DNA of 32,452 nt from a virus (Duplodnaviria; Heunggongvirae; Uroviricota; Caudoviricetes). The position numbers and the translations under genes were made by a program. Shown here in pieces: positions 4,228-28,696 of this stretch (the first letter of the stretch is position 1; each line of letters starts with the position of its first letter). The notes beneath the pieces were generated by a model. The model was not told the origin of the DNA, did not search any database, and saw only the letters and a program-made list of their open reading frames with translations. The stretch covers positions 64,001 through 96,452 of IMG/VR virus record IMGVR_UViG_3300028275_000480. One strand, written 5' to 3'.

Positions 4228-4935
4228 ATGATATTACATGCATTTGGTGATAGTTTTGTTTCGGGGTACCAGGACGATTTTATCCATATATTAGGATACG
4301 ATCCTGGTCACGGAATGGAATTTGAAGAACGAGAAGAATATCTAAAATACAATGTAAGTTTTGCAGCATTAATTGCCAAACATCTTGGATTTAAATTTAA
4401 AAATTATGCAGAAAGAGGGAGTGGAAATTTTCCTCAGCTTGATAAATTAACAACAAGATTGCGAGCCGGAAAAATAAAATCTGGAAACATTGTATTATTT
4501 GGAATTACAACGCCAATTCGAGATAGACTTTTTTTTGCCGAAGATGTTAAAATTCATAATGAAGAATTAAGTGGACCAATTTTAATCGATAGAGAACTAA
4601 TAACATCTCAAAGATTAGACAAAGTAATTGATTCTGATTATTTTTATATTCTTTGTATATTAGAACAACTTGAAAGAATTTTTGGAATAAAAATAATTAA
4701 ATTTAATCTATTTGGAACACCTCCTCCCGTTCCTTATAATTTTATAAATTATATCAACGAAGGAACATTAATTGATATTTTAAATGATACATGGGGGCAA
4801 AAAATAAAAAATCAGTATCATACCAATATTGATGTTCCGGCGGGTTACGAAAATTTGTATACTTTGAAAAAACATCCGTCGATTGAAGGGCATAAAAAAA
4901 TAGCATCTTGGTTTATTAATAATGTTAAACTATAA
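4228..4935 (+). CDS. SGNH/GDSL-like hydrolase-fold hypothetical protein
   Basis: N-terminal AFGDSF block and C-terminal HPSIEGH block. Confidence 0.65.
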   Translation: MILHAFGDSFVSGYQDDFIHILGYDPGHGMEFEEREEYLKYNVSFAALIAKHLGFKFKNYAERGSGNFPQLDKLTTRLRAGKIKSGNIVLFGITTPIRDRLFFAEDVKIHNEELSGPILIDRELITSQRLDKVIDSDYFYILCILEQLERIFGIKIIKFNLFGTPPPVPYNFINYINEGTLIDILNDTWGQKIKNQYHTNIDVPAGYENLYTLKKHPSIEGHKKIASWFINNVKL

Positions 4936-4949
4936 TTGTTAAATATAAG

Positions 4950-5266
4950 TTATTGCTGTATGAAGCAGATAGAAAAGTGTTCTGGACGCGGGTTCGACTC
5001 CCGCCTGGTCCACCAGAGAGAGCATTAGAGAACCGTTACTAAGGGCTTTGGCCGCGGTGTAGCAGACGTCATGCTAGTGTTCTCCCTAATGGGCCAGTCA
5101 AGGTTTCGACAGGGCAAAGAGTAAGGAAGTGGACAGCACGGGAATGTGAAACCCGTAGGGTTGGGGGAACCCGGCCGAAGAAGCAAAAAAAGTAAACGCA
5201 AACGATACACGTTTCGCATTAGCCGCTTAAGGCTTTGGGTAGCCATACCTCGAAACAGAAAATGGT
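4950..5266 (+). ncRNA. ssrA: Circularly permuted (two-piece) tmRNA; outer boundaries approximate
   Basis: Acceptor piece first (T arm GCGGG-TTCGACT-CCCGC, CTGGTCC-A-CCA ending 5015), then a 75-nt intervening segment, then the 5' piece GGGCCAG...TTCGAC from 5091 giving G3:U70. TGCTGT (4954-4959) pairs with ACAGCA (5133-5138). Tag ORF 5198-5230 = ANDTRFALAA*. Confidence 0.92.
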
Positions 5267-5295
5267 AAAAATGGCGTCTTTTGACGCCATTTTTT
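5267..5295 (+). terminator. Intrinsic terminator after tmRNA (A- and T-tracts suggest bidirectional)
   Basis: AAAAATGGCGTC-TTTT-GACGCCATTTTTT. Confidence 0.88.
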
Positions 5296-5296
5296 A

Positions 5297-5325
5297 TTGC
5301 ATCTGCACAAGTAAGACTATATACT
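5297..5325 (+). promoter_or_regulatory. sigma70-like promoter for the beta-barrel gene
   Basis: TTGCAT, 17 nt, TATACT immediately after the terminator. Confidence 0.55.
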
Positions 5326-18551: not shown

Positions 18552-18857
18552 ATGGGAACACTAACCGACATCGAAATTGATGAAAAAATAAAAGTTACAA
18601 TTCAACCTCCAAAGTTATGGAAAGTTATATTTTTTAATGACGACCAAACACCTATGGATTTTGTTGTAGAATTATTGGTAAACATTTTTAAACATAACGA
18701 AAATAGAGCAAGAGATCTTACTTTAGAAATTCATAATACAGGAAGTGCAGTTGCAGGAATTTATCCTCATGAAATTGCTGAACATAGAGGATTAATGGCA
18801 ACTCAAGTTTCTCGAACAAACGGTTTTCCATTACAAATACAGGTGGTAGAAGAATGA
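18552..18857 (+). CDS. clpS: ATP-dependent Clp protease adaptor ClpS
   Basis: P.LWKVIFFNDDQTPMDFVVELL..IF and L.IH..G.AV.GIY..EIAE. Confidence 0.9.
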   Translation: MGTLTDIEIDEKIKVTIQPPKLWKVIFFNDDQTPMDFVVELLVNIFKHNENRARDLTLEIHNTGSAVAGIYPHEIAEHRGLMATQVSRTNGFPLQIQVVEE

Positions 18858-19399
18858 GCTTAAGAGAAATCACAAAAGATTTACATCATGAAGCAGAAAC
18901 AACAAAATTTGCTAAAGAATTACTTAGTGGTAAAATTGGTGGTAAGAAATATGTAAATTATCTTTACAACCTATTAGCAATTTATGATCCAATTGAATGG
19001 TATGCAAGTCGTCAGGGCATGTTTGAAAAAATGCCGTATTTGCCAAGACTTAAACATATTCATGCAGATTTTAAAGAATTGGACGACGGCGGCTATTTGT
19101 ATCTAACTCCGTCTACATTAGAATATCAAGCGTATTTGCATAAGTTAGGTAATGACCCAGAACGCAAACATTTGATTAAAGCGCATTTATATTGTCGACA
19201 TATGGGCGATTTAAATGGCGGGCAAATCATTAAAAAACAAGTAGCTCATATCAGTAGTGGTAAGTTTTATGATTTTAATGATGCAGATACATTAAAGGTA
19301 CAGATTCGTCAAGAGCTTACAGACGACCTCGGTGATGAGGCTCGTTTGGCATTTGAATATGCTATTCGAATGATGAAGGATCTCTATGACGGAGAGTAA
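18854..19399 (+). CDS. Heme oxygenase (short phage HemO/Ho1 type)
   Basis: SLREITKDLHHEAE proximal His helix; HLYCRHMGDLNGGQII distal motif; DEA..AF. Confidence 0.88.
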   Translation: MSLREITKDLHHEAETTKFAKELLSGKIGGKKYVNYLYNLLAIYDPIEWYASRQGMFEKMPYLPRLKHIHADFKELDDGGYLYLTPSTLEYQAYLHKLGNDPERKHLIKAHLYCRHMGDLNGGQIIKKQVAHISSGKFYDFNDADTLKVQIRQELTDDLGDEARLAFEYAIRMMKDLYDGE

Positions 19400-20072
19400 T
19401 GTTTGGAATACGTTAATTGGAATCCAACAATTACTTGAAGACTCGTTTAACAGAACAGGCACCGAAATACAGGAGCCTGGAATGGATAGGTTTAATCAGC
19501 CTGGTTGGGTCAATCGTGTGTGGTCCAGCGATGCTTATCGTCGTGCTCACATTGATGTAGTAGACGCTAGAGAAACCAAAGGATTGTGGATGATGCATTG
19601 TTGCATTTTCCCTCATATTCATAACTCTGCTCCTATATTTGGTTTTGATGTAATAGCAGGAAAAAACAAGATCACAGGCTGTTTCATAGACTACAGCCCA
19701 ACTACTAACAAACAGCATCCTATGATAGATTATTTTGCTGAAGAAGTTACTAGATACGAGTGGATCCGCAAACGTGAATTACCCGACTGGGCACAGCGTA
19801 TTTTTAGCTCTAGTATGGTAGCTGCGGGCAATGTTAAAGACGAATCAGAATTGAAACAGATTACTAGTCTAGCACATATACTGGTAAATCACTACTTAGA
19901 AACCGTAGGTGAAACTAATAATACTACCGCAGATGCAACTTTTGAACAGAATTACTATGCTCAAAATCAAAAACAAAACCCGCATACACCGCGTGTAATG
20001 GCTAGTTTGGGTTTAGACGAGGAAGATGTTCGAGTGTTTATTCAAGAATGCCTGTTCCCAGAAATTCGATAA
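19386..20072 (+). CDS. Ferredoxin-dependent bilin reductase (PcyA/PcyX-like)
   Basis: YRRAHI, MMHCCIFP, APIFGFDVIAG, CFIDYSP, RELPDWAQRIFS, Q..Y...Q..NPHT..V; adjacent to the heme oxygenase. Confidence 0.85.
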   Translation: MTESNVWNTLIGIQQLLEDSFNRTGTEIQEPGMDRFNQPGWVNRVWSSDAYRRAHIDVVDARETKGLWMMHCCIFPHIHNSAPIFGFDVIAGKNKITGCFIDYSPTTNKQHPMIDYFAEEVTRYEWIRKRELPDWAQRIFSSSMVAAGNVKDESELKQITSLAHILVNHYLETVGETNNTTADATFEQNYYAQNQKQNPHTPRVMASLGLDEEDVRVFIQECLFPEIR

Positions 20073-20082
20073 ATACAGAACT

Positions 20083-21378
20083 ATGAGATTTTTTGAATTT
20101 GCAGCGCCTCAACAGGATCAAAACACGGTTTCTAAATTAGTAGATATTGTGAAAAACCCTAATACCGATCCTAAATTAAAAAACGAAATTCTAGCTATTT
20201 TAAAACAGCTGGAAGTTAAGGGCACCAAACAAGATAAACAGCTTAACGCTATACCCCCAGCGGAAGAGATTACTAAAGAAGCAGTAGGTGACGATACAAT
20301 TAGTACTATTGAATCCGATGAAGATTACTTTCAACGTATTCTTAACAGCGACCCTCGTTTAAAAGCCATTGCAGAAAAGAAACTTAAAGATGCAGAATCA
20401 CAAGGATTTAATGTAGGTTCTGCTTTGTCAGCTGGAGATGCATTTAAACGTTTTAACGATCAAGTATTATCGTTAGTACAACATCTTAAACAGCTACCAC
20501 CAGACTTTGCTAAAGAAGTTACTAAAACATTTAGTCACTTAGCTACTCAAGGTATAGATCAACAAGATTTAATTTCTTTCTTACAAGATTGTGCTAAACC
20601 AGATAGACTAATAGATCTACCTGCATTAACATCAAAATCTGGTACAGGTATTAGATTAAATGTTCCTTCAAAATATCAAGAAATCGTTAAGCATCTCGTG
20701 GCAGTTACTCCGGGTAGTAAAAATGCCGCTGCGGGCAAGGGAGAACTTATGCTTGCAGTTATTGGTAAAGACACAACTAAACCTGCTGTAGGAGATATTA
20801 TTGTAGGTGAAAAACGTGTTGAAGTTAAAGCATCTGATGCAACTGGTAAAACAATATCTGATTTTGCTCTCGGTAAACAACCAGTTGAAAAGGCAAGAAC
20901 AATCATGGTTAATACCATGAATAGAACCCTTGGTAGAGAGGTGTTTTTAGATGCAACAGCTGATACAACCAACGACCAAGGTGTTACTGGTATATCATCT
21001 ATTAATACTAAAAATCTTGCTCAACTAAACAAGCTCTTTAGTGAAATGGGTGCAGAAGCTACACAAAAAATGTTCCGTGAAATGTTCACAGCAGTAGTAG
21101 GCAATAAATTTTCAAAGGATATTGAAGATATTGTTTCCTCTATAGATAATAACGGAATTAACGTAGAATCAATGAGAAAGGCTATTGTTGCTTTATTGTT
21201 TGACTACTATAAATCTGTGAATAACCATACAGGATTATTAACTATAAACGTTCCTAATCTAACTATCAATTATGTAGAAGATGCAGCGTCATTTGCAGCT
21301 ATTCCTAATCTAACAATTGGTACTTTATTTGATTTTAGAGCCAATCCTGGATCTATAACATCATTTAAACAAAAATAA
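20083..21378 (+). CDS. Hypothetical protein with C-terminal PD-(D/E)xK-like nuclease motif
   Basis: GKGELMLAV...GDIIVGEKRVEVKAS; start MRFFEF directly after a GATAAATA box. Confidence 0.6.
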   Translation: MRFFEFAAPQQDQNTVSKLVDIVKNPNTDPKLKNEILAILKQLEVKGTKQDKQLNAIPPAEEITKEAVGDDTISTIESDEDYFQRILNSDPRLKAIAEKKLKDAESQGFNVGSALSAGDAFKRFNDQVLSLVQHLKQLPPDFAKEVTKTFSHLATQGIDQQDLISFLQDCAKPDRLIDLPALTSKSGTGIRLNVPSKYQEIVKHLVAVTPGSKNAAAGKGELMLAVIGKDTTKPAVGDIIVGEKRVEVKASDATGKTISDFALGKQPVEKARTIMVNTMNRTLGREVFLDATADTTNDQGVTGISSINTKNLAQLNKLFSEMGAEATQKMFREMFTAVVGNKFSKDIEDIVSSIDNNGINVESMRKAIVALLFDYYKSVNNHTGLLTINVPNLTINYVEDAASFAAIPNLTIGTLFDFRANPGSITSFKQK

Positions 21379-21468
21379 AGTTTCTTAATCTAGAACAATT
21401 TAATAACGCCTTATAATTTTGGTTCTCTCTCCTTTAAATACTATACGGTATAATCCGGGAGCGAATCA

Positions 21469-21951
21469 ATGTCTAAAACAAAAATAATATTAGTGACACT
21501 GATGCTGCCTTCAGTTGTATTGGCAGCAGAACTACAGCATAACTTTAATAGTCCTGCTTTTAACGGGCAAGGCTATAGTTCGCACGTTCTAACAATCAAA
21601 CAACTTGAAGATCAAGCAAAAGAAAAGAACAGAGCAGCGGTAGAAGCATTAAAAGCAAAAGCAGAAGCTGAAGCAGCAAATACACCAACTGCACGTTTTA
21701 TTGCTAATCTTGAAAGTCGTATCTATTCACAATTAGCTAAACAACTAACTGATAGTATGTTTGGTGAAGGTGCAACCTGTACAACCAGAGGTGTTGTATG
21801 CGGAACAATTCCAGATATTGGTGGTAATTCAATTAGTTGGAAACTCGGTGATGGCAGTGATAATGGTATGATTGTCATTACAATTCAAAGCCTTACTAAT
21901 GCCTCGGATATAACAACAATGAAGGTTCCAGCCGGAACGTTTTATTTTTAA
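21469..21951 (+). CDS. csgF: Curli assembly protein CsgF-like
   Basis: Signal peptide, then ELQHNFNSPAFNGQGYSSH (CsgF N-terminal F.NP.FGG-like motif) and F...LESRIYSQLAKQLTDSMF; upstream of csgG. Confidence 0.82.
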   Translation: MSKTKIILVTLMLPSVVLAAELQHNFNSPAFNGQGYSSHVLTIKQLEDQAKEKNRAAVEALKAKAEAEAANTPTARFIANLESRIYSQLAKQLTDSMFGEGATCTTRGVVCGTIPDIGGNSISWKLGDGSDNGMIVITIQSLTNASDITTMKVPAGTFYF

Positions 21952-21961
21952 GGGGCGGTAA

Positions 21962-23122
21962 ATGAAAAAAACAATAATAGCCCTAGGGGTAATCGCTATT
22001 TTATCAGGCTGTGCCACTAGTTCATCAATAAGAGAAAAGATGACCGGTGAACAATTTGATGAGCCAACCGTAGAGCAGAACAAATATCTAAAAAAATTAG
22101 GTGACGGAATTAGAGCACCTAAAGGTGGACCAATTACCGTAGCAGTATACGGTTTCCGTGATATGACCGGACAACGTAAATCTGTTCCAAATATTGCTAG
22201 TTTAAGTTCAGCAGTTACTCAAGGTGCAGATTCATATCTTGTAAAAGCATTACAAGATGTAGGCAATGCAAGATGGTTTACCGTAGTTGAGCGTGTTGGT
22301 CTTGAGAACCTAATTAAAGAACGTCAAATGATTCGTCAAATGCGTGAACAATATCAAGGCCGCGATGCTAAACCGTTGCCACCAATGTTGTTTGCAGGAG
22401 TTATTATCGAAGGCGGAATTGTTGGCTACGATTCAAATACATCAACCGGCGGTAGTGGTGCAAGATTTTTAGGAATTGGAGCACAAACACAATATCAAAG
22501 TGATACCGTAACCGTAAATTTAAGAACGGTTAGCGTTTCTACTGGAGAAGTATTGACTAGCATTACCGTTACCAAGACCGTGCTAAGTTATATGGATAAG
22601 GTCGGTGTGTTAAGATTTGTGTCGGCCGGTGAACAAGCAATTGAAGCTGAAATTGGTGCAAGCATTAACGAAAGCATCAATAAAGCAACTAATCTAGCTA
22701 TTCAAGCAGCCGTTATAGAAACTATTAATGAAGGTGCCAAAAAAGGACATTGGGCATTTAAAGATGATTTGGTTATAACCCATCCGCTACCTGTTCAACC
22801 AGAAATAAAAATTGAACCTATGGTAGAGGTAAAGGTTGAACCTAAGGCAGAAGTAAAGGTCGAACCTAAGGCAGAAGCAAAACCAGAAGTAAAGGCAGAA
22901 GCAAAACCAGAAGCAAAACCAGAACCAACTCCAGCTAAAGTTCTTACTAAAAAATCAACAACAAGAACAACGGTAAGAGAAAATGATAAGGCTGGATCAA
23001 CTATCCTTTCAATATTATCACCAGGGGACGAAGTTGAAGTATTACGAGAACAAGGAAATATGACTTTTGTTCAAACAAAGAGTGGTAAGAAGGGATGGGT
23101 AGTAAGTAATTTCTTAAAATAA
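21962..23122 (+). CDS. csgG: Curli secretion pore CsgG fused to a Pro/Lys/Glu/Ala linker and an SH3b-like domain
   Basis: Lipobox LSGC; VAVYGFRDMTGQRK, AVTQGA, WFTVVERVGLENLIKERQMIR, IEGGIVGYDSN, DTVTVNLRTVSVSTGEVL; C-terminal L..GDEV.VL....G...V....GKKGWV...FL. Confidence 0.92.
   Translation: MKKTIIALGVIAILSGCATSSSIREKMTGEQFDEPTVEQNKYLKKLGDGIRAPKGGPITVAVYGFRDMTGQRKSVPNIASLSSAVTQGADSYLVKALQDVGNARWFTVVERVGLENLIKERQMIRQMREQYQGRDAKPLPPMLFAGVIIEGGIVGYDSNTSTGGSGARFLGIGAQTQYQSDTVTVNLRTVSVSTGEVLTSITVTKTVLSYMDKVGVLRFVSAGEQAIEAEIGASINESINKATNLAIQAAVIETINEGAKKGHWAFKDDLVITHPLPVQPEIKIEPMVEVKVEPKAEVKVEPKAEAKPEVKAEAKPEAKPEPTPAKVLTKKSTTRTTVRENDKAGSTILSILSPGDEVEVLREQGNMTFVQTKSGKKGWVVSNFLK
22829..22926 (+). 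repeat. Intragenic tandem repeats (24-nt x2, then 12-nt units) encoding VKVEPKAE/AKPE linker
   Basis: gtaaaggtYgaacctaaggcagaa twice, then gcaaaaccagaa-type units. Confidence 0.85.
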
Positions 23123-23167
23123 TAACGGTACACTAATAAAAATAATAAAGTACCAAGGAGCGAAGAA

Positions 23168-23971
23168 ATGTATAAAAAAGATATTAAACTAATGGCGGCT
23201 ATTGTCTCCGCTATATTTTGGGGTTCTGGTGCCCATGCAGCTGGTAGCAGCACTGGCCCAAACAACGTATATATAGAACAAGTGGGAAGTAGTAATACAA
23301 TTACTATTGAACAAGTTGGCGGGACAAATAATGTTGGCGGAACAGCAGGTTCTGTTAGCGTTGATGCAACAGGTGTAACAACATTAACACCAACTGCACC
23401 TAGTTCGTCAAATTATGCAACAATAAACGGTAGTAGCAATACCGTATCAATCCAACAAAACGGAAATAACAATTCCTCACAATACAATATTGTTGGAAGT
23501 AAGAATACATATACAGAAACCATTAATGGTTATAATAACCAAGTAAAATTAACGGTTAATAATGGAACCGTTACAGGTACTTCTAATTCTACAATGACAA
23601 ATACCATCACTGGCGATAGCAACGTAATAATTCAAAATATTACTTCTAGTCGTTTTACGTCAACTAATACAATTACAGGTGATAGTAACCAAGTTACTAC
23701 AGATAGCACTACATCAGGTACATTAAGTAGCATTAGTAATACTATTACTAGCAGTAATAATAACGTGATCAACATTCAACAAGCTGACACAGGAACTCAT
23801 ACCGTTGTATTGAATACGACTGGTGGTGATTACAACTCTATTACTACTCAACAACAAGGAAGTAATAACAGCACAATCAATGTTAGCACAAACGGAGCAC
23901 ACAATACCATTACGGTTCGTAGTACTAATGGATCTAGTATTACTAATCCGATGACAGCAATAGTGAGGTAA
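23168..23971 (+). CDS. Secreted curlin-repeat protein (CsgA/CsgB-like)
   Basis: Signal peptide; N/S/T/G-rich ~22-aa repeats such as NVYIEQVGSSNTITIEQVG and NTVSIQQNGNNN. Confidence 0.78.
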   Translation: MYKKDIKLMAAIVSAIFWGSGAHAAGSSTGPNNVYIEQVGSSNTITIEQVGGTNNVGGTAGSVSVDATGVTTLTPTAPSSSNYATINGSSNTVSIQQNGNNNSSQYNIVGSKNTYTETINGYNNQVKLTVNNGTVTGTSNSTMTNTITGDSNVIIQNITSSRFTSTNTITGDSNQVTTDSTTSGTLSSISNTITSSNNNVINIQQADTGTHTVVLNTTGGDYNSITTQQQGSNNSTINVSTNGAHNTITVRSTNGSSITNPMTAIVR

Positions 23972-23973
23972 CA

Positions 23974-25065
23974 ATGAATGCCCTGCTCGGAGTAATTTTA
24001 TCACTTTTTGTGGTTAATGCCTGGGCGGGCATTGGTATTGTTGCCGACGTAAAAGGAACAGCCTGTGAGATCCAACGAAATAAAAGTAAATTATCCGGAG
24101 TTAAAGGTGCAGAAATTGAAACAATGGATACCTATATTACAGGATCTTGCGTAAGCAATATCACTTTTAAAGATGATACTAAAGTTCGAGTTACAGAAAA
24201 TAGCAGGCTGCTTATCGACGATTTTGTCTTCGATCCTAAAAAGTCTGATGCTGGCAAACTGGCTATTAAAGCCGCTATGGGAACCGTCAGATACACATCA
24301 GGACAGATTGCTAAGAATAATCCTCAGCAAGTTAATATCCACACTCCTACCGCCTCGATAGCAGTTCGAGGAACTGATTTTACAATGACCGTAGATGAAG
24401 CAGGACAAAGTCTTGTTGTTCTAGTCCCGTCATGTAAAGATGATAAAGAAGTTAAACAATTTGAATTAGATGAACAACGTTGTCGCGTGGGAAAAATTGA
24501 GGTAACGACGCAAGCAGGTTCAGTGGAGTTAGACAAAGCATTCGAGGGAACATATGTTACAAGTGCTAATATGCCACCGACTCCTCCGGTCGTTATGAAT
24601 ATTATCGAATCAAAAATTAATAATAATTTAATCTTAGTTAAGCCTATGGAAATTCAGCGTTCTTTAGCCACTGCTACTAAAACTAAAAAAGAAATTGAAT
24701 CAGAAGAACTAGAACAAGAAGCCATACGTCAAATGATGCAACGCCTTGAAGAATCAAGAGAATCCCCTCAAGCAAAAGTATTACAATTTACCTATGCTGA
24801 TGGAAGCAAAGGATGTAATCCTTCAACAAATATTTGTGTTAACTGGGATAATCCAGACGGATCGTCAATACAAGACAAAGGCAAAGGTGTGGCGTTTAGA
24901 AAAAACGAAGACCACTATGCTGAAATTAAAACTTTAGGCTATGCATCAAATACAACAATAACCGTTATACATAATGATCAACCAGATACTATTGTTATTG
25001 GCAGCGGAGATCCAAACGGTAACGTTGTTTATATAAAACAAAACGCTGGTGTATTAAAAAGATGA
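23974..25065 (+). CDS. Exported FecR-domain protein
   Basis: Signal peptide; F.DDTKVRVTENSRLLIDDFVFDP, GTVRYTSG, IHTPTASIAVRGTDF. Confidence 0.85.
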   Translation: MNALLGVILSLFVVNAWAGIGIVADVKGTACEIQRNKSKLSGVKGAEIETMDTYITGSCVSNITFKDDTKVRVTENSRLLIDDFVFDPKKSDAGKLAIKAAMGTVRYTSGQIAKNNPQQVNIHTPTASIAVRGTDFTMTVDEAGQSLVVLVPSCKDDKEVKQFELDEQRCRVGKIEVTTQAGSVELDKAFEGTYVTSANMPPTPPVVMNIIESKINNNLILVKPMEIQRSLATATKTKKEIESEELEQEAIRQMMQRLEESRESPQAKVLQFTYADGSKGCNPSTNICVNWDNPDGSSIQDKGKGVAFRKNEDHYAEIKTLGYASNTTITVIHNDQPDTIVIGSGDPNGNVVYIKQNAGVLKR

Positions 25066-26444
25066 AAAGACTAATACAATTTTTATTCTTAATAATGATA
25101 ACACCATTTGTTTGGTGTGAAGATCTTTCTGCACAAGGAACAGGTTTTGAATCAGGAACATTGTCTGGTTGGACATCGGCCGGTGGAGTTAGTGTATCTG
25201 GAGCCAGTTCTAATAACCTTGGAGGCAAAGCCTGGGTAGTTAATCCTTATGGTACTAAAATGGGTATGCTTTATCCTAGTGGAAGTACAAGTTTTGATAC
25301 AGCATTGTCTACTCTAGGACTATCGGCAAATGAAAATTCAGCTGTTAGATCTTTTTTATCTGCCAACGCCGGTGGCGGAAGTCCTACTCCAACTAATGCT
25401 GCTTATGTAATGACTACCGTAGCATTACAAGCAGGAGTTACCTATACCTTTGCTTGGAACTATTTGAGCACAGATTATTTTCCATTCAACGACGGTTCTA
25501 TGATGACACTGACACATGCCAGTAATGCTAGTGTTATCCCATCGTTGAATAACGGTAATCAACGTTTTGCATTATTAGGTTTTACAAATCCCGGATCAGG
25601 AAATTACTCAACAGGATCCTACGGTTCTACAGGTTGGCAGTTAGCTGTGTTTACCGTACCCGAAGACGGCAATTATGTTTTAGGTTTTGCCGCATTTAAT
25701 CTAGGCGACACTATTCTAAGTCCTATCTTATACATTGACGAAGTTCAAGGAAGCACAACACTCAACGGCCAAAACTTTGGACCTGTTGCTCCTAATGCAG
25801 GTTCAACAGCACCAGCAACTCCTTCAGAACCAACAGCACCAACTTTATGTTGTGGCGGTAGCGCAGCATCATTTAATATTAATGCTATGCACCAAACAAA
25901 CATTAATACGTTTTTGAATAGACCACACGCTGATTCAAAAGTTATGATTGAACAAATTGGCAGCTATAATCATATTACGGTTCAACAAACAGGCACCAAT
26001 CAAAACTATTTAGAATACATAGGCACAGGAAATAATAATCAAATAACCGTCAATCAATCTGGCAATGTTAATACACAGGTTAACTATGCTGAGATAAGAT
26101 TAGGAACTACAGGTAGTGCAAATAATAATACCGTGAATCTTACACAACAAAGTACAGGTGGTGGCAAAGGAGCATTTATTACCGTTAACGATAATAATAA
26201 TGCTGTGACATTACAGCAAAAAGATTCAGGAAGTCATTATGCGGCTATACATGTAAGTGGCGGATCAAAAACCGTTGATGTTATTCAACAAGGATCTGCC
26301 GGTCATATGGCAGATATTACATTATCAGGGCCAGGGAGCCGAAGTTTAAATCTTACACAAGGCGGCTCTACACAACAATTCTATAGTATAAACAGCAGTT
26401 GTAGCAGTAATTGTCAAGCGATAACCGTTACGCAAGGACAATAA
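25062..26444 (+). CDS. Secreted two-domain protein: N-terminal beta-sandwich, Pro/Thr linker, C-terminal curlin repeats
   Basis: GFESGTLSGW start; C-terminal IEQIGSYNHITVQQTG, NQITVNQSGN, NTVNLTQQ and VDVIQQG repeats. Confidence 0.72.
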   Translation: MKRLIQFLFLIMITPFVWCEDLSAQGTGFESGTLSGWTSAGGVSVSGASSNNLGGKAWVVNPYGTKMGMLYPSGSTSFDTALSTLGLSANENSAVRSFLSANAGGGSPTPTNAAYVMTTVALQAGVTYTFAWNYLSTDYFPFNDGSMMTLTHASNASVIPSLNNGNQRFALLGFTNPGSGNYSTGSYGSTGWQLAVFTVPEDGNYVLGFAAFNLGDTILSPILYIDEVQGSTTLNGQNFGPVAPNAGSTAPATPSEPTAPTLCCGGSAASFNINAMHQTNINTFLNRPHADSKVMIEQIGSYNHITVQQTGTNQNYLEYIGTGNNNQITVNQSGNVNTQVNYAEIRLGTTGSANNNTVNLTQQSTGGGKGAFITVNDNNNAVTLQQKDSGSHYAAIHVSGGSKTVDVIQQGSAGHMADITLSGPGSRSLNLTQGGSTQQFYSINSSCSSNCQAITVTQGQ

Positions 26445-26451
26445 ATAATAG

Positions 26452-26664
26452 ATGCGTAAATTAACGTTGTTAATTTCATTTATTATTACAGGTTGTGCAA
26501 CAGGTCCTAGACCAGTGTCTGCACCACCACCGCCCAGTTGTATTAATATTCCCGGTGAAGGATGTAAACAATTTAATGCTGGTAATAAGGGCGGTACAAC
26601 ACTAGGACATCATAACAATGAAGATATCCCTGCCAAAGCTGCCGCAGTTCCAACTCAACCCTAA
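26452..26664 (+). CDS. Small Pro-rich lipoprotein
   Basis: Lipobox ITGC, an additional Cys pair; overlaps the cyclase start by 47 nt. Confidence 0.55.
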   Translation: MRKLTLLISFIITGCATGPRPVSAPPPPSCINIPGEGCKQFNAGNKGGTTLGHHNNEDIPAKAAAVPTQP

Positions 26665-28696
26665 AAAGATTTTAATCAGTCCTTGGACAGCATTAATAAC
26701 ACTTGTACTTATTTTAAGTATAAGAATAGCTGATCCTGTCTTTGTAGAAAGTATAAGATTACGTTACTTTGATACGTTAATTACAAGTCAAACACCTACA
26801 CAAAATAATATTATTACAATTAACATTGATGAAAATGCTTTAGACAAATATGGCCAATGGCCTTTTAAGCGTGATGTTTATGCACAACTTATAGACGAGC
26901 TTTATAAACGCAACGCTGGTCTAGTAGTATTCAATGTATTAATGACTGAAAAAGATCGTCAAGGAGGCGATGCACGACTAGCAACTACTCTCAGCGACTT
27001 TCCTGTAATACTTCCAAACATGCCGGCAGACAGGATGAAAAACACTCCTCGTCAGCCCGGTACAGCCGTTATTGGTTCTGACTTTCAAGAATCAATAATT
27101 CAATACCCGGGTATAATTGCAAATATTTCAGAACTTGAAAAACGAGCGGCAGGTGTTGGTATTGTAAACACACTACCAGAAGTTGATGGAGTTAATAGAA
27201 GAATGCCTCTAGTCGTTAGTGTTGATGGAAGAGTTTATCCAAGTCTGGCCATGGAGGCATTAAGAGTTGCCGCAGGAGATACAACCGTTCAAGTCAAACT
27301 TTTTGAAGGCGGTGTTGAAAAAATGCGAATACCTAAGTTTGGTCCTATTACTACTGATCAATTAGGTCGTGTGTGGATTGACTGGAGTCAACAATCAAAA
27401 TCATATTCAATGACAGAGTTGCCTAAAGACTTTGGCGGTGCTGTTGTTATTGTAGGTGTTGCTGCGGCCGGTTTGGGCAATCCTGTCCCTACAGCAGTAG
27501 GCAGCGTTTGGCCACACGATGTGCAGGCCGCAGTTTTAGGAACAATGTTCAATGGCGTTGTTATTCAAAGACCTGATTATGCCGACGGTGTTGAAATACT
27601 AACATTAGCATTAGCAGGTATACTATTAATTTTCTTAACGAGGTATGTATATGTCGGATTGGCAACTACAATTGGTCTGGTGGTCATCAGCGGTATTGGC
27701 AGTTGGTTTGTGTTTAATAATTTTCTATGGTTATTTGACGCTACTGCCCCTGGAGTTGGCTTGGTATTGGTCGCTTTGCATGCCTACGGTGTCAAGTTTG
27801 TAAGTGAGTTTTTACAAAAGCAACAAATTAAAAAACAATTTGGTTCTTATGTAAGCCCTGTTATCGTTGAAAGATTACAAAAAGATCCTAGTCTAATTCG
27901 TTTAGGCGGGGAAGAAAAAATGCTCACAGCAGTTATGACTGATATGCGCAACTTCACAGGTCTAGGTGAAAAGTATGGAGCAGACGTTGAAGGTTTTACA
28001 GCTATCATGAATTCTTATATGACAGCAATTAGTAAACCTGTGTTTGCCAACGATGGATGTTTAATTAAATTTATTGGTGATGCATCTTTACATATACACG
28101 GAGCTCCGGTAGATGACGATCGTCATGCTTATCACGGTGTTAAAACTGCTTTAGAAATGATAGAAGCAGTCAACGAATTTAACAAACATCTAGAGTCCAT
28201 TGGAAAACCACCCGTTGGTATGGGAGCAGGTGTTAACACTGGTAAGATTCTAGTTGGTAATATTGGTAGTGAAGGTAAAATGGGTTATGACGTACTAGGC
28301 GATCCTGTATCGGTAGCAAGTCGACTTGAAGGACAAACAAAAGGTTATGGTGTACTAATCATTATAGGCCCAGATACCTACGAAGAAGTTAAAAATGATT
28401 TTACGTGTTTAGAATTAGATTGTATTGCAGTTAAAGGCAAAGCTATTGGCTTAAACATTTATACTCCAATAACAACAAAAGCTGAGTCGAATGATCTACA
28501 AATGCATGCCGCAATGCTACAATTATATCGTCAACAAAAATTTGATCAAGCTATTAAATTCTGTAAAGATTTAATGGGGAGGTTTGAAGGATCTATGGAT
28601 CATTATTATGAAATATGGATTGAACGTTGCGAGGAGATGAAAACACATGATTTACCCGCAGACTGGGATGGGGTCTTTAGAGCCACTTCTAAATAA
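26618..28696 (+). CDS. CHASE2-domain class III adenylate/guanylate cyclase
   Basis: TM, CHASE2 (IDENALDKYGQWPFKR, DGVNRRMPL), three TM, QFGSYVSP, TDMRNFT, KFIGDA, GVNTG...VGNIG, YDVLGDPVSVASRLEGQTK, VKGK; C-terminal TPR-like tail ending WDGVFRATSK. Confidence 0.95.
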   Translation: MKISLPKLPQFQLNPKKILISPWTALITLVLILSIRIADPVFVESIRLRYFDTLITSQTPTQNNIITINIDENALDKYGQWPFKRDVYAQLIDELYKRNAGLVVFNVLMTEKDRQGGDARLATTLSDFPVILPNMPADRMKNTPRQPGTAVIGSDFQESIIQYPGIIANISELEKRAAGVGIVNTLPEVDGVNRRMPLVVSVDGRVYPSLAMEALRVAAGDTTVQVKLFEGGVEKMRIPKFGPITTDQLGRVWIDWSQQSKSYSMTELPKDFGGAVVIVGVAAAGLGNPVPTAVGSVWPHDVQAAVLGTMFNGVVIQRPDYADGVEILTLALAGILLIFLTRYVYVGLATTIGLVVISGIGSWFVFNNFLWLFDATAPGVGLVLVALHAYGVKFVSEFLQKQQIKKQFGSYVSPVIVERLQKDPSLIRLGGEEKMLTAVMTDMRNFTGLGEKYGADVEGFTAIMNSYMTAISKPVFANDGCLIKFIGDASLHIHGAPVDDDRHAYHGVKTALEMIEAVNEFNKHLESIGKPPVGMGAGVNTGKILVGNIGSEGKMGYDVLGDPVSVASRLEGQTKGYGVLIIIGPDTYEEVKNDFTCLELDCIAVKGKAIGLNIYTPITTKAESNDLQMHAAMLQLYRQQKFDQAIKFCKDLMGRFEGSMDHYYEIWIERCEEMKTHDLPADWDGVFRATSK

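Follow-up and report, generated by a model that had tools for sequence, protein, structure and literature searches.

The window analysed here, a 32,452-nucleotide stretch of the tailed-phage record IMGVR_UViG_3300028275_000480 from IMG/VR, carries a cassette of seven open reading frames (ORFs), all on the + strand between nucleotides 21469 and 28696. They specify a curli-type secretion channel (CsgF and CsgG), two curlins, an exported FecR-domain protein, a small lipoprotein and a putative adenylate cyclase with a CHASE2 receptor domain (Table 1). The source is a 44.5-kb viral record with a CheckV completeness of 12%, referred to below as the partial record. The spacings between consecutive genes are, in order, 10, 45 and 2 nt, a 4-nt overlap, 7 nt and a 47-nt overlap; the coordinates match exactly those of the first-pass annotation, made from the sequence alone, which had described seven same-strand genes overlapping or no more than 45 nt apart. 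Its domain calls for CsgF, CsgG, curlin 1, FecR, CHASE2 and Guanylate_cyc were likewise borne out by Pfam searches. The cassette is almost certainly a member of the published viral type VIII secretion system (T8SS; curli)-FecR-adenylate cyclase (AC) module (PMC9599517).

Table 1. Features of the curli cassette and its leader, in nucleotide positions of the window
Feature	Position	Strand	Characteristics and basis
csgF upstream leader, intergenic	21379..21468	+	Candidate promoter elements and Shine-Dalgarno sequence; read from sequence
CsgF-like protein, 160 aa	21469..21951	+	Sec signal peptide, N-terminal NFNSPAFNG motif; Pfam CsgF
CsgG outer-membrane channel lipoprotein, 386 aa	21962..23122	+	Pfam CsgG and SH3_3, lipobox LSGC
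Curlin 1, 267 aa	23168..23971	+	Signal peptide; Q-x-G-x-x-N curlin repeats over whole length
Exported FecR-domain protein, 363 aa	23974..25065	+	Pfam FecR; model; PupR-like fold
Curlin 2, 460 aa	25062..26444	+	Jelly-roll head and CsgA-type beta-solenoid, from model
Small lipoprotein, 70 aa, Pro-rich	26452..26664	+	Lipobox ITGC; sequence
Putative CHASE2 receptor class III adenylate cyclase, 692 aa	26618..28696	+	Pfam CHASE2 and Guanylate_cyc

The channel is specified by the first two genes. CsgF matched the Pfam CsgF family (E-value=7e-8; 33.1 bits against a cut-off of 25.8), while a phmmer search of PDB sequences gave no match to the solved CsgF; its gene adjoins csgG in 83 of 83 loci. CsgG (Pfam CsgG, E-value=5.9e-53) aligns over residues 8–268 to the Escherichia coli protein (6lqh/3x2r; E-value=5e-50) and continues through a Pro/Glu/Lys-rich linker (residues about 270–330) into a C-terminal SH3_3 domain (residues 336–386; E-value=2.2e-6), a tail which the first-pass annotation had not recorded. 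Of 60 distinct viral CsgG proteins, 15 are of this long, SH3-tailed form.

Curlin 1 scored just over the cut-off of Pfam Curlin_rpt (E-value=2.6e-4). It also matched the curlin-repeat protein of PDB entry 8c50 (E-value=0.0067) and, using hhalign, the solenoid of curlin 2 (E-value=2e-16, probability 98.7%), and on its sequence is a candidate for the major fibre subunit. Curlin 2 has no Pfam match of its own and no PHROG match. An AlphaFold model of this protein, built from 34 sequences, consists of an N-terminal beta domain (a jelly-roll head, residues about 29–243, modelled with moderate confidence), a disordered Pro/Thr linker with an invariant CCGG at 263–266, and a C-terminal block of 14 regular short strands (residues 290–460; pLDDT 80–93). 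In an exhaustive structural comparison the top match of the solenoid (residues 285–460) was the Pontibacter curli subunit 8c50 (Z=15.7 over 165 residues, 23% identity), and the E. coli CsgA fibril 8enq ranked sixth (Z=13.3, with 111 of 111 residues aligned). A phmmer search with the solenoid against PDB sequences gave nothing meaningful, and Foldseek on the curlin 2 model nothing at E-value≤0.001, the weak matches being to CBM and gingipain-adhesin structures. That the curlins would prove to be beta-solenoids was a check set beforehand, and it held: the model of curlin 2 matches CsgA-type folds and curlin 1 is homologous to it.

The head of curlin 2 resembles MAM domains, a Bacteroides sugar-binding protein, CBM4 and an alginate-binding module (Z=7.7–8.5). 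Across the relatives of curlin 2 the solenoid is constant and the head is exchanged, being an F5/8 type C (discoidin) domain in 10–11 of 34, PA14 in 6 of 34 and of the window type in about ten; headless forms are 140–155 aa in length. Such a design is that of a fibre subunit on which one glycan-binding module can be exchanged for another, and curlin 2 is the candidate for the adhesin-bearing subunit.

The FecR protein (Pfam FecR, E-value=4.3e-10) was modelled from 53 sequences (pLDDT 83) as a beta-sandwich (residues 21–195), a long helix (225–261) and a small beta-domain (288–356). Over about 135 residues the sandwich resembles the periplasmic signalling domain of PupR (6ovk, Z=14.5) as well as an anti-sigma factor from Bacteroidales (4m0n, Z=13.8). 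A "cell surface anchoring domain" (5ix9), considered as a match to the C-terminal part, was rejected since it aligns to residues 17–113 of the N-terminal sandwich (Z=6.5). With the PupR/FecR anti-sigma regulators the protein shares the periplasmic FecR beta-sandwich fold, which in PupR binds the periplasmic signalling domain of an outer-membrane protein. Those regulators, however, possess a cytoplasmic anti-sigma domain and a membrane anchor, in place of which the window protein has a cleavable-type signal peptide; it is therefore not an anti-sigma factor. Its gene is linked to neither an ECF sigma factor nor a TonB transducer. In the absence of linked partners and of an anti-sigma domain, the label "iron regulator", under which FecR is read in PMC9599517, does not transfer to this protein, which is instead one half of a FecR-CHASE2 sensor pair.

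The C-terminus of the FecR protein follows the pattern hydrophobic-x-hydrophobic-x-Q-(G/D/N), a turn, and G-x-N-x-hydrophobic-x-hydrophobic-x-Q, ending in a curlin-like N-x-V-x-I-x-Q strand of which N350, I354 and Q356 are conserved in at least 90% of sequences. The pattern is kept though the remainder of the C-terminal domain is barely alignable between marine and freshwater forms. The terminal motif was present in 49 of 53 curli-linked FecR proteins; of the 17 that accompany CHASE2 cyclases in bacteria as stand-alone pairs, none had it, and the background was 8% among all ORFs of 200 aa or more in the loci. The motif suggests a tail that attaches to a curlin or to the channel, with the FecR domain turned to CHASE2. 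Prediction of a complex between FecR residues 20–363 and CHASE2 residues 41–325, both supplied as alignments and run without controls, returned a score of 0.00, which speaks neither for nor against binding.

The last gene of the cassette specifies a protein with CHASE2 (E-value=4.3e-39, residues 28–335) and Guanylate_cyc (E-value=1.9e-16) domains. Its hydropathy indicates a first transmembrane segment at about residues 22–40, a periplasmic CHASE2 region (41–325) and three transmembrane segments at about 325–395, followed by the cyclase domain (437–608) and a conserved C-terminal helical tail. Mapping against 2w01, 3r5g and 6fht located the metal-binding residues D442 and D488, the adenylate-specifying pair K484/D558 and the transition-state R569. 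In the family (39 sequences) D442, K484 and R569 are invariant and D488 is conserved in at least 90%; D558 is the alignment consensus only and lies outside the 90% list. From these residues the product of the enzyme is expected to be cyclic AMP (cAMP).

Read from the translations, CsgF, both curlins and FecR have Sec signal peptides, and CsgG and the 70-aa protein have lipoboxes. Together with the transmembrane topology of the cyclase, these agree with the proposal made at first reading that the cassette spans the outer membrane, the periplasm and the inner membrane.

The arrangement is repeated in other viruses. Of 91 relatives found by scanning IMG/VR with CsgG, 80 loci were retained, and the gene order of the cassette recurs in about 80 viral loci with protein identities of 34–80%. 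When identical CsgG proteins were collapsed and at least 10 kb of downstream sequence was required, 40 distinct viral loci remained: CsgF, curlin 1 and FecR are each kept in 40 of 40, curlin 2 in 39 of 40 and the cyclase in 39 of 40. The first-pass annotation had named a failure of FecR and the CHASE2 cyclase to be conserved with csgFG as evidence against its reading; both are co-conserved, and the linkage is far beyond chance. Within the block the FecR gene begins 1–3 nt after the end of curlin 1 in most loci, its stop codon overlapping the start of curlin 2 by 4 nt in 40 of 48. In a collection of metagenome proteins, the FecR family numbered 5,312 relatives at E-value≤1e-5. One viral locus has a split FecR gene (L082:11573-12617; ORFs of 194 and 149 aa), owing to a frameshift, a stop codon or an assembly error. 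The small lipoprotein is an accessory and, by its distribution, lineage-specific component. Homologs were found only in L068 (85% over residues 1–67), where the overlap with the start of the cyclase gene is the same, and in L050/L051 (37%), and it is missing from the phages Melnitz and HTVC008M.

Much of this has been described before. The presence of csgF and csgG in pelagimyophages was reported by Zaragoza-Solas et al. in 2020, who proposed import or "sibling capture" as their function (PMC7029224). Buchholz et al. (2022) argued that phage Melnitz is without csgA/B, proposed a lysis-timing pore and never mentioned FecR or the cyclase (PMC9004378). Genes 99–104 of Melnitz are annotated as CsgF, CsgG, curlin-repeat, FecR-domain, curlin-repeat and adenylate/guanylate cyclase, and HTVC008M has a block of the same order as the window. 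A further paper of 2022 (PMC9599517) described the module (histidine kinase)-CsgF-CsgG-CsgA/B-FecR-CsgA/B-AC in podophages of the HTVC023P type and in myophages, detected it at all 65 GOV2.0 stations and in metatranscriptomes, and inferred an alphaproteobacterial origin; phage curli modules made up about 0.1% of the assembled viral proteins in GOV2.0. As that description includes FecR and the cyclase, the composition of the cassette is already published. The statement at first reading that csgG and csgF alone had been reported in some myophages covers only those two genes of the module, and the suggestion of a candidate new system does not stand, the module having been published in 2022 and annotated in Melnitz and HTVC008M.

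The window shares with Melnitz and HTVC008M an identical gene order, at protein identities of 29–46%, the lack of CsgE and CsgC, and presence in RNA libraries. It differs from the pelagiphage forms in the linker and SH3 tail of CsgG, since the marine proteins are roughly 280 aa in length and have neither, in the CBM/MAM-like head of curlin 2, in the extra small lipoprotein and in that no upstream histidine kinase was found. The SH3-tailed CsgG, the CBM/MAM-like curlin head and the lipoprotein are details of this variant, and CHASE2, lectin-type domains, SH3 and freshwater phages are not mentioned in PMC9599517. Also absent from that paper are stand-alone FecR-CHASE2 pairs, chromosomal cassettes of Caulobacteraceae, the swappable heads of curlin 2 and the curlin-like tail of FecR.

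With regard to the kinase, the partial record contains no HATPase_c domain, so that the upstream histidine kinase gene described for the podophage form has no counterpart here. Since none is annotated at that place in Melnitz or HTVC008M either, the kinase gene is not a defining feature of the myophage form. The position to which PMC9599517 assigns the histidine kinase is occupied in the window by a 450-aa ORF (20026–21378) which adjoins csgF and in which no kinase domain was detectable. It matched no Pfam or PHROG family, its nearest Atlas clusters being viral hypotheticals. The counterpart in L068 is 89% identical, and in L022–L025 and L073 the C-terminal half of the ORF is found again upstream of csgF.

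Relatives in bacteria were sought by scanning 185,579 species genomes with the FecR alignment, which gave three classes of hit. The first consists of phage contigs mis-binned into metagenome-assembled genomes (MAGs) of many phyla, such as L084, which carries DNA polymerase B, a ligase and a gp44 clamp loader. The second comprises two Caulobacteraceae MAG contigs (L093, L094) in which csgF, csgG, two curlins, FecR and the CHASE2 cyclase stand together, between bacterial flanking genes (TonB-dependent receptor, peptidase S9, amidohydrolase, glycosyltransferase). These contigs contradict the statement in PMC9599517 that FecR, the histidine kinase and AC lie outside bacterial T8SS operons, as far as FecR and AC are concerned. 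In them both curlins precede FecR, which overlaps the cyclase directly, whereas in the phages FecR lies between the curlins; the FecR tail is weakened (GGTVINVTQD). Copies in bacteria seem to be rare: among 401 Alphaproteobacteria searched with the Caulobacteraceae FecR there was no further close relative, the best match having 38% identity over the FecR domain only.

In the third class, of 17–21 loci, a bacterial FecR gene lies beside a CHASE2 cyclase with no curli genes nearby. Strict neighbour criteria left 17 such pairs, in Alphaproteobacteria, Myxococcota, Spirochaetota and Omnitrophota, so that in bacteria FecR and the CHASE2 cyclase constitute a two-gene unit of their own. Like the window, these loci encode an exported FecR-domain protein beside a receptor of the TM-CHASE2-3TM type (TM, transmembrane segment). 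Their FecR partners are longer (about 320–800 aa), with other C-terminal regions and without the curlin-like tail, and csgFG and curlins are not nearby. In six loci (L107, L125, L129, L134, L144 and L155; Myxococcota, Spirochaetota and Proteobacteria) with FecR genes just upstream, and on the same strand, of CHASE2 cyclases, the FecR proteins have a common C-terminus, …NGRIADSALQALV…PIPRP, unlike the curli-linked tail, and form a distinct subfamily. Comparable neighbourhoods have been published: an operon of LysM-FecR and a CHASE2 histidine kinase in Burkholderiales and Pseudomonas aeruginosa (PMC5192318), and the adjacent Sinorhizobium meliloti genes clr, cyaD1 (a CHASE2 cyclase) and smc02177 (FecR domain; PMC5498481). 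The S. meliloti CHASE2 cyclases are also said to need the outer-membrane barrel NsrA (PMC13001267).

In a quick maximum-likelihood tree, which has a long branch and drew long-branch warnings, the cassette-linked cyclases formed one clade (support 98) apart from the stand-alone bacterial cyclases, and the Caulobacteraceae pair was sister to all 38 phage cyclases (support 98). The topology, which we treat as suggestive, fits uptake of the entire block from a bacterium and speaks against recent transfer from phage to bacterium. The window cyclase is closest in identity to that of L068 (72%), but groups in the tree with that of L063; mosaicism or a tree artefact may be responsible.

Taken together, sequences and models indicate that the CsgG/CsgF channel, here bearing an SH3 tail at the periplasmic end of CsgG, two exported curlins, an exported FecR protein and an inner-membrane CHASE2 cyclase are inherited as one block. 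Compared with the enterobacterial csgBAC-csgDEFG system (6lqh, 6l7a, 8enq), the block shares the CsgG channel, the CsgF family and secreted Q/N-rich beta-solenoid subunits. It is without CsgE, CsgC and CsgD, has replacements at the constriction of CsgG, and adds an N-terminal head on one subunit, FecR and the CHASE2 cyclase. The explanation that we favour, and consider probable, is that the window holds a riverine copy of the published viral type VIII (curli) module, serving both display and sensing. The components would be exported by the Sec system during infection, and both curlins would be secreted through CsgG/CsgF, curlin 1 to make up the bulk of the amyloid fibre and curlin 2 to add subunits with a protruding N-terminal head. 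The infected cell would thereby be coated with glycan-binding fibres, of use in aggregation, in the capture of neighbouring cells or particles, or in shielding of the surface. The lectin-type heads on curlin 2 make such a display plausible, and that infected cells present a fibre or adhesin is, in our judgement, likely. FecR and the CHASE2 cyclase would be a periplasm-sensing pair borrowed from bacteria, where it works without curli. The curlin-like strand of FecR probably binds curlin subunits or the secretion channel, and the FecR domain may address CHASE2, in which case cAMP synthesis would be tied to secretion or fibre assembly. We infer on this basis that the state of the fibre may be turned into a cAMP signal. 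The position of the FecR gene between two curlin genes, its stop overlapping the start of curlin 2, is in favour of coupling, yet a physical connection from curlin through FecR to CHASE2 remains doubtful. A more specific version makes FecR a curlin-sensing adaptor, the tail of which docks by beta-strand complementation on unpolymerised curlin, the fibre base or the CsgG vestibule while the FecR domain engages CHASE2. The cyclase would then report secretion load, assembly or fibre contact as cAMP, and the device would have arisen in Alphaproteobacteria and been captured whole by phages; this version, taken as a whole, we regard as unlikely.

Several observations weigh against the display and sensor mechanism. 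Fibres, secretion or cAMP from a phage cassette have nowhere been demonstrated experimentally, and Melnitz-infected cells did not clump in the cultures of Buchholz et al. (PMC9004378). At the constriction of CsgG, alignment to 6lqh shows the replacements Tyr51→Val, Asn55→Ser and Phe56→Leu. Profile searches of the partial record at E-values up to 0.1 gave no match to CsgE or CsgC (PF10627, PF10610), in accordance with the remark at first reading that neither was recognisable, although at 12% completeness this is not proof of absence; nor was a cNMP-binding protein or cAMP receptor found in the partial record. In the cyclase, Ser565 replaces the transition-state Asn of the motif GD-x-V-N-x-A-x-R, which is Asn in CyaB (3r5g) and Cya2 (2w01). 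As Ser is the consensus at this position throughout the family, the level of activity is uncertain. The resemblance of the last 30 residues of FecR to one curlin strand-turn-strand unit is weak (hhalign E-value=0.005–0.007, probability 5–7%; E-value=0.54 for the FecR N-domain as control). Since the curli-linked FecR proteins are one family, the tail shows conservation under constraint rather than independent recurrence. The junction between curlin 2 and the cyclase is loose, ranging from 1 nt to 6.5 kb, with inserted unrelated genes that specify a PstS-like binding protein, RimK, GT4 glycosyltransferases, porins and a metallophosphatase. In phage loci L040 and L084 the cyclase is inverted with respect to the rest of the cassette, and, lying on the opposite strand, can be transcribed separately. 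In S. meliloti, finally, smc02177 was needed for the output phenotype and not for perception of the plant signal (PMC5498481). Among the inserted genes, those of L056 (14252-17330) are two outer-membrane porin genes (Porin_4, E-value=6.5e-21; Porin_O_P, E-value=1.1e-38), and L029 has the PstS-like binding protein at this junction.

The dispensability of smc02177 for signal perception, together with the loose junction and the inverted cyclases, would equally follow if two independent units shared one variable island, the curli genes forming a fibre or pore and the FecR-CHASE2 pair sensing another cue (nutrient or envelope state), raising cAMP and reprogramming the host. The bacterial FecR-CHASE2 pairs without curli genes are of the same tendency, for they imply that the pair need not read amyloid. 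Such independence is a tentative possibility. It has to contend with FecR never being found apart from the curlins (2–3 nt after curlin 1 and overlapping curlin 2), with the retention of the cyclase in nearly all viral loci despite the inserts, with the occurrence of the block in Caulobacteraceae chromosomes as well, and with the specific curlin-like tail of the curli-linked FecR.

FecR might also replace CsgE/CsgC as a periplasmic chaperone or gate for curlin export, with the cyclase regulating only expression or timing. The missing CsgE and CsgC genes of the partial record would be accounted for in this manner, as would the export of FecR, its translational coupling to curlin 2 and the curlin-like strand at its end. 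The fold, however, is that of a partner-binding signalling domain, as in PupR (Z=14.5), and not that of CsgE or CsgC; the closest relatives outside curli loci are partners of CHASE2 receptors, and the profile match between tail and curlin is weak. We hold this role to be unlikely.

A function of CsgG/CsgF purely as a pore, either a lysis-timing pore akin to pinholins or secretins or an import channel, with no fibre formed, has been proposed for Melnitz and the pelagimyophages (PMC9004378, PMC7029224) and would suit both the unclumped Melnitz cultures and the lack of a CsgE gate. Those papers assumed csgA/csgB to be missing, whereas the two curlin genes are kept in 40 of 40 and 39 of 40 loci, curlin 2 models as a CsgA-type solenoid, one curlin bears lectin heads and CsgF, the fibre-anchoring factor, is always present; a pore without a fibre is accordingly improbable. 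Phage fibres and tailspikes often contain beta-solenoid and lectin-type domains, and several of the lower fold matches are tailspikes. That the proteins are structural parts of the virion (fibres or decorations) is nevertheless most improbable, given that every product has a Sec signal peptide, a lipobox or transmembrane segments, that the same block lies in bacterial chromosomes with ordinary bacterial flanks, and that the best fold matches are curli subunits, not tailspikes.

Phage curli modules are abundant in aquatic viromes and give the host a surface structure which it does not otherwise encode. If infected cells do carry glycan-binding amyloid fibres, aggregation, particle formation, superinfection and carbon export in rivers and oceans could be affected. 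The second half of the cassette provides a way into the question of what is sensed by CHASE2 receptors and their FecR partners, and the FecR tail a concrete, testable link to the curlins. The value of the window lies in confirmation and in details absent from the literature consulted (swappable lectin heads, an SH3-tethered pore, the FecR tail and bacterial copies) and not in a new system.

The 90-nt gap before csgF contains the elements TATAAT (21412–21417 and 21449–21454), a late-type TAAATA core (21435–21440) and a csgF Shine-Dalgarno sequence, GGGAG (21457–21461). A scan for sigma-70 consensus promoters found 33 sites against 28.5 expected, which is background level. Four RNA-library runs of riverine origin yielded contigs over the cassette, of which one of 3,218 nt spans 21438–24655, from csgF into FecR, and others cover curlin 2 and the cyclase. 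They show presence only, giving neither expression level nor strand, and contaminating DNA cannot be excluded. In four of four runs the contigs break before csgF, the upstream ones ending at 21089–21400 and the downstream ones starting at 21438–21540, and this break in the gap is a weak hint of a transcript boundary. An apparent joint in an RNA contig (23625→25803) was rejected: its shorter side is 21 letters, with foreign GC-rich sequence beyond, and it was taken to be a contig of another organism sharing short words.

The phage context of the cassette is given by DNA similarity to Melnitz, by PHROG matches and by the IMG/VR record itself. The only deposited phages with DNA-level similarity to the window are four Melnitz OM43 myophages, and the stretch is present in 14 DNA and 6 RNA-library runs labelled riverine metagenome, from 2018. 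The source is probably a large T4-like riverine phage, much larger than the pelagiphages. Close relatives of the cassette lie on IMG/VR contigs of 353 (L017), 372 (L070), 280 (L042), 219 (L069) and 202 kb (L039). These contigs, and the low completeness of the window record, place the module in very large phages and not just in pelagimyophages of about 140 kb.

Some 1.4 kb upstream of csgF, with the 450-aa ORF in between, are overlapping genes (18854–20072) for a heme oxygenase (E-value=1.3e-21) and a ferredoxin-dependent bilin reductase (E-value=3.7e-16), an auxiliary pair of a pigment pathway in a phage that is not obviously a cyanophage. At 1205–1280 lies a tRNA of the amber-suppressor type, its anticodon being CUA (labelled tRNA-Pyl by ARAGORN; Rfam tRNA, 56.5 bits). 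The 38 + strand ORFs end in TAA (28), TGA (9) and TAG (1), and the cassette genes are without in-frame TAG. A permuted two-piece tmRNA at 4902–5321 has the tag peptide ANDTRFALAA (Rfam beta_tmRNA, 120.9 bits; tmRNA_permuted, 115.9 bits), and in Melnitz, too, a two-piece tmRNA is located near the curli module.

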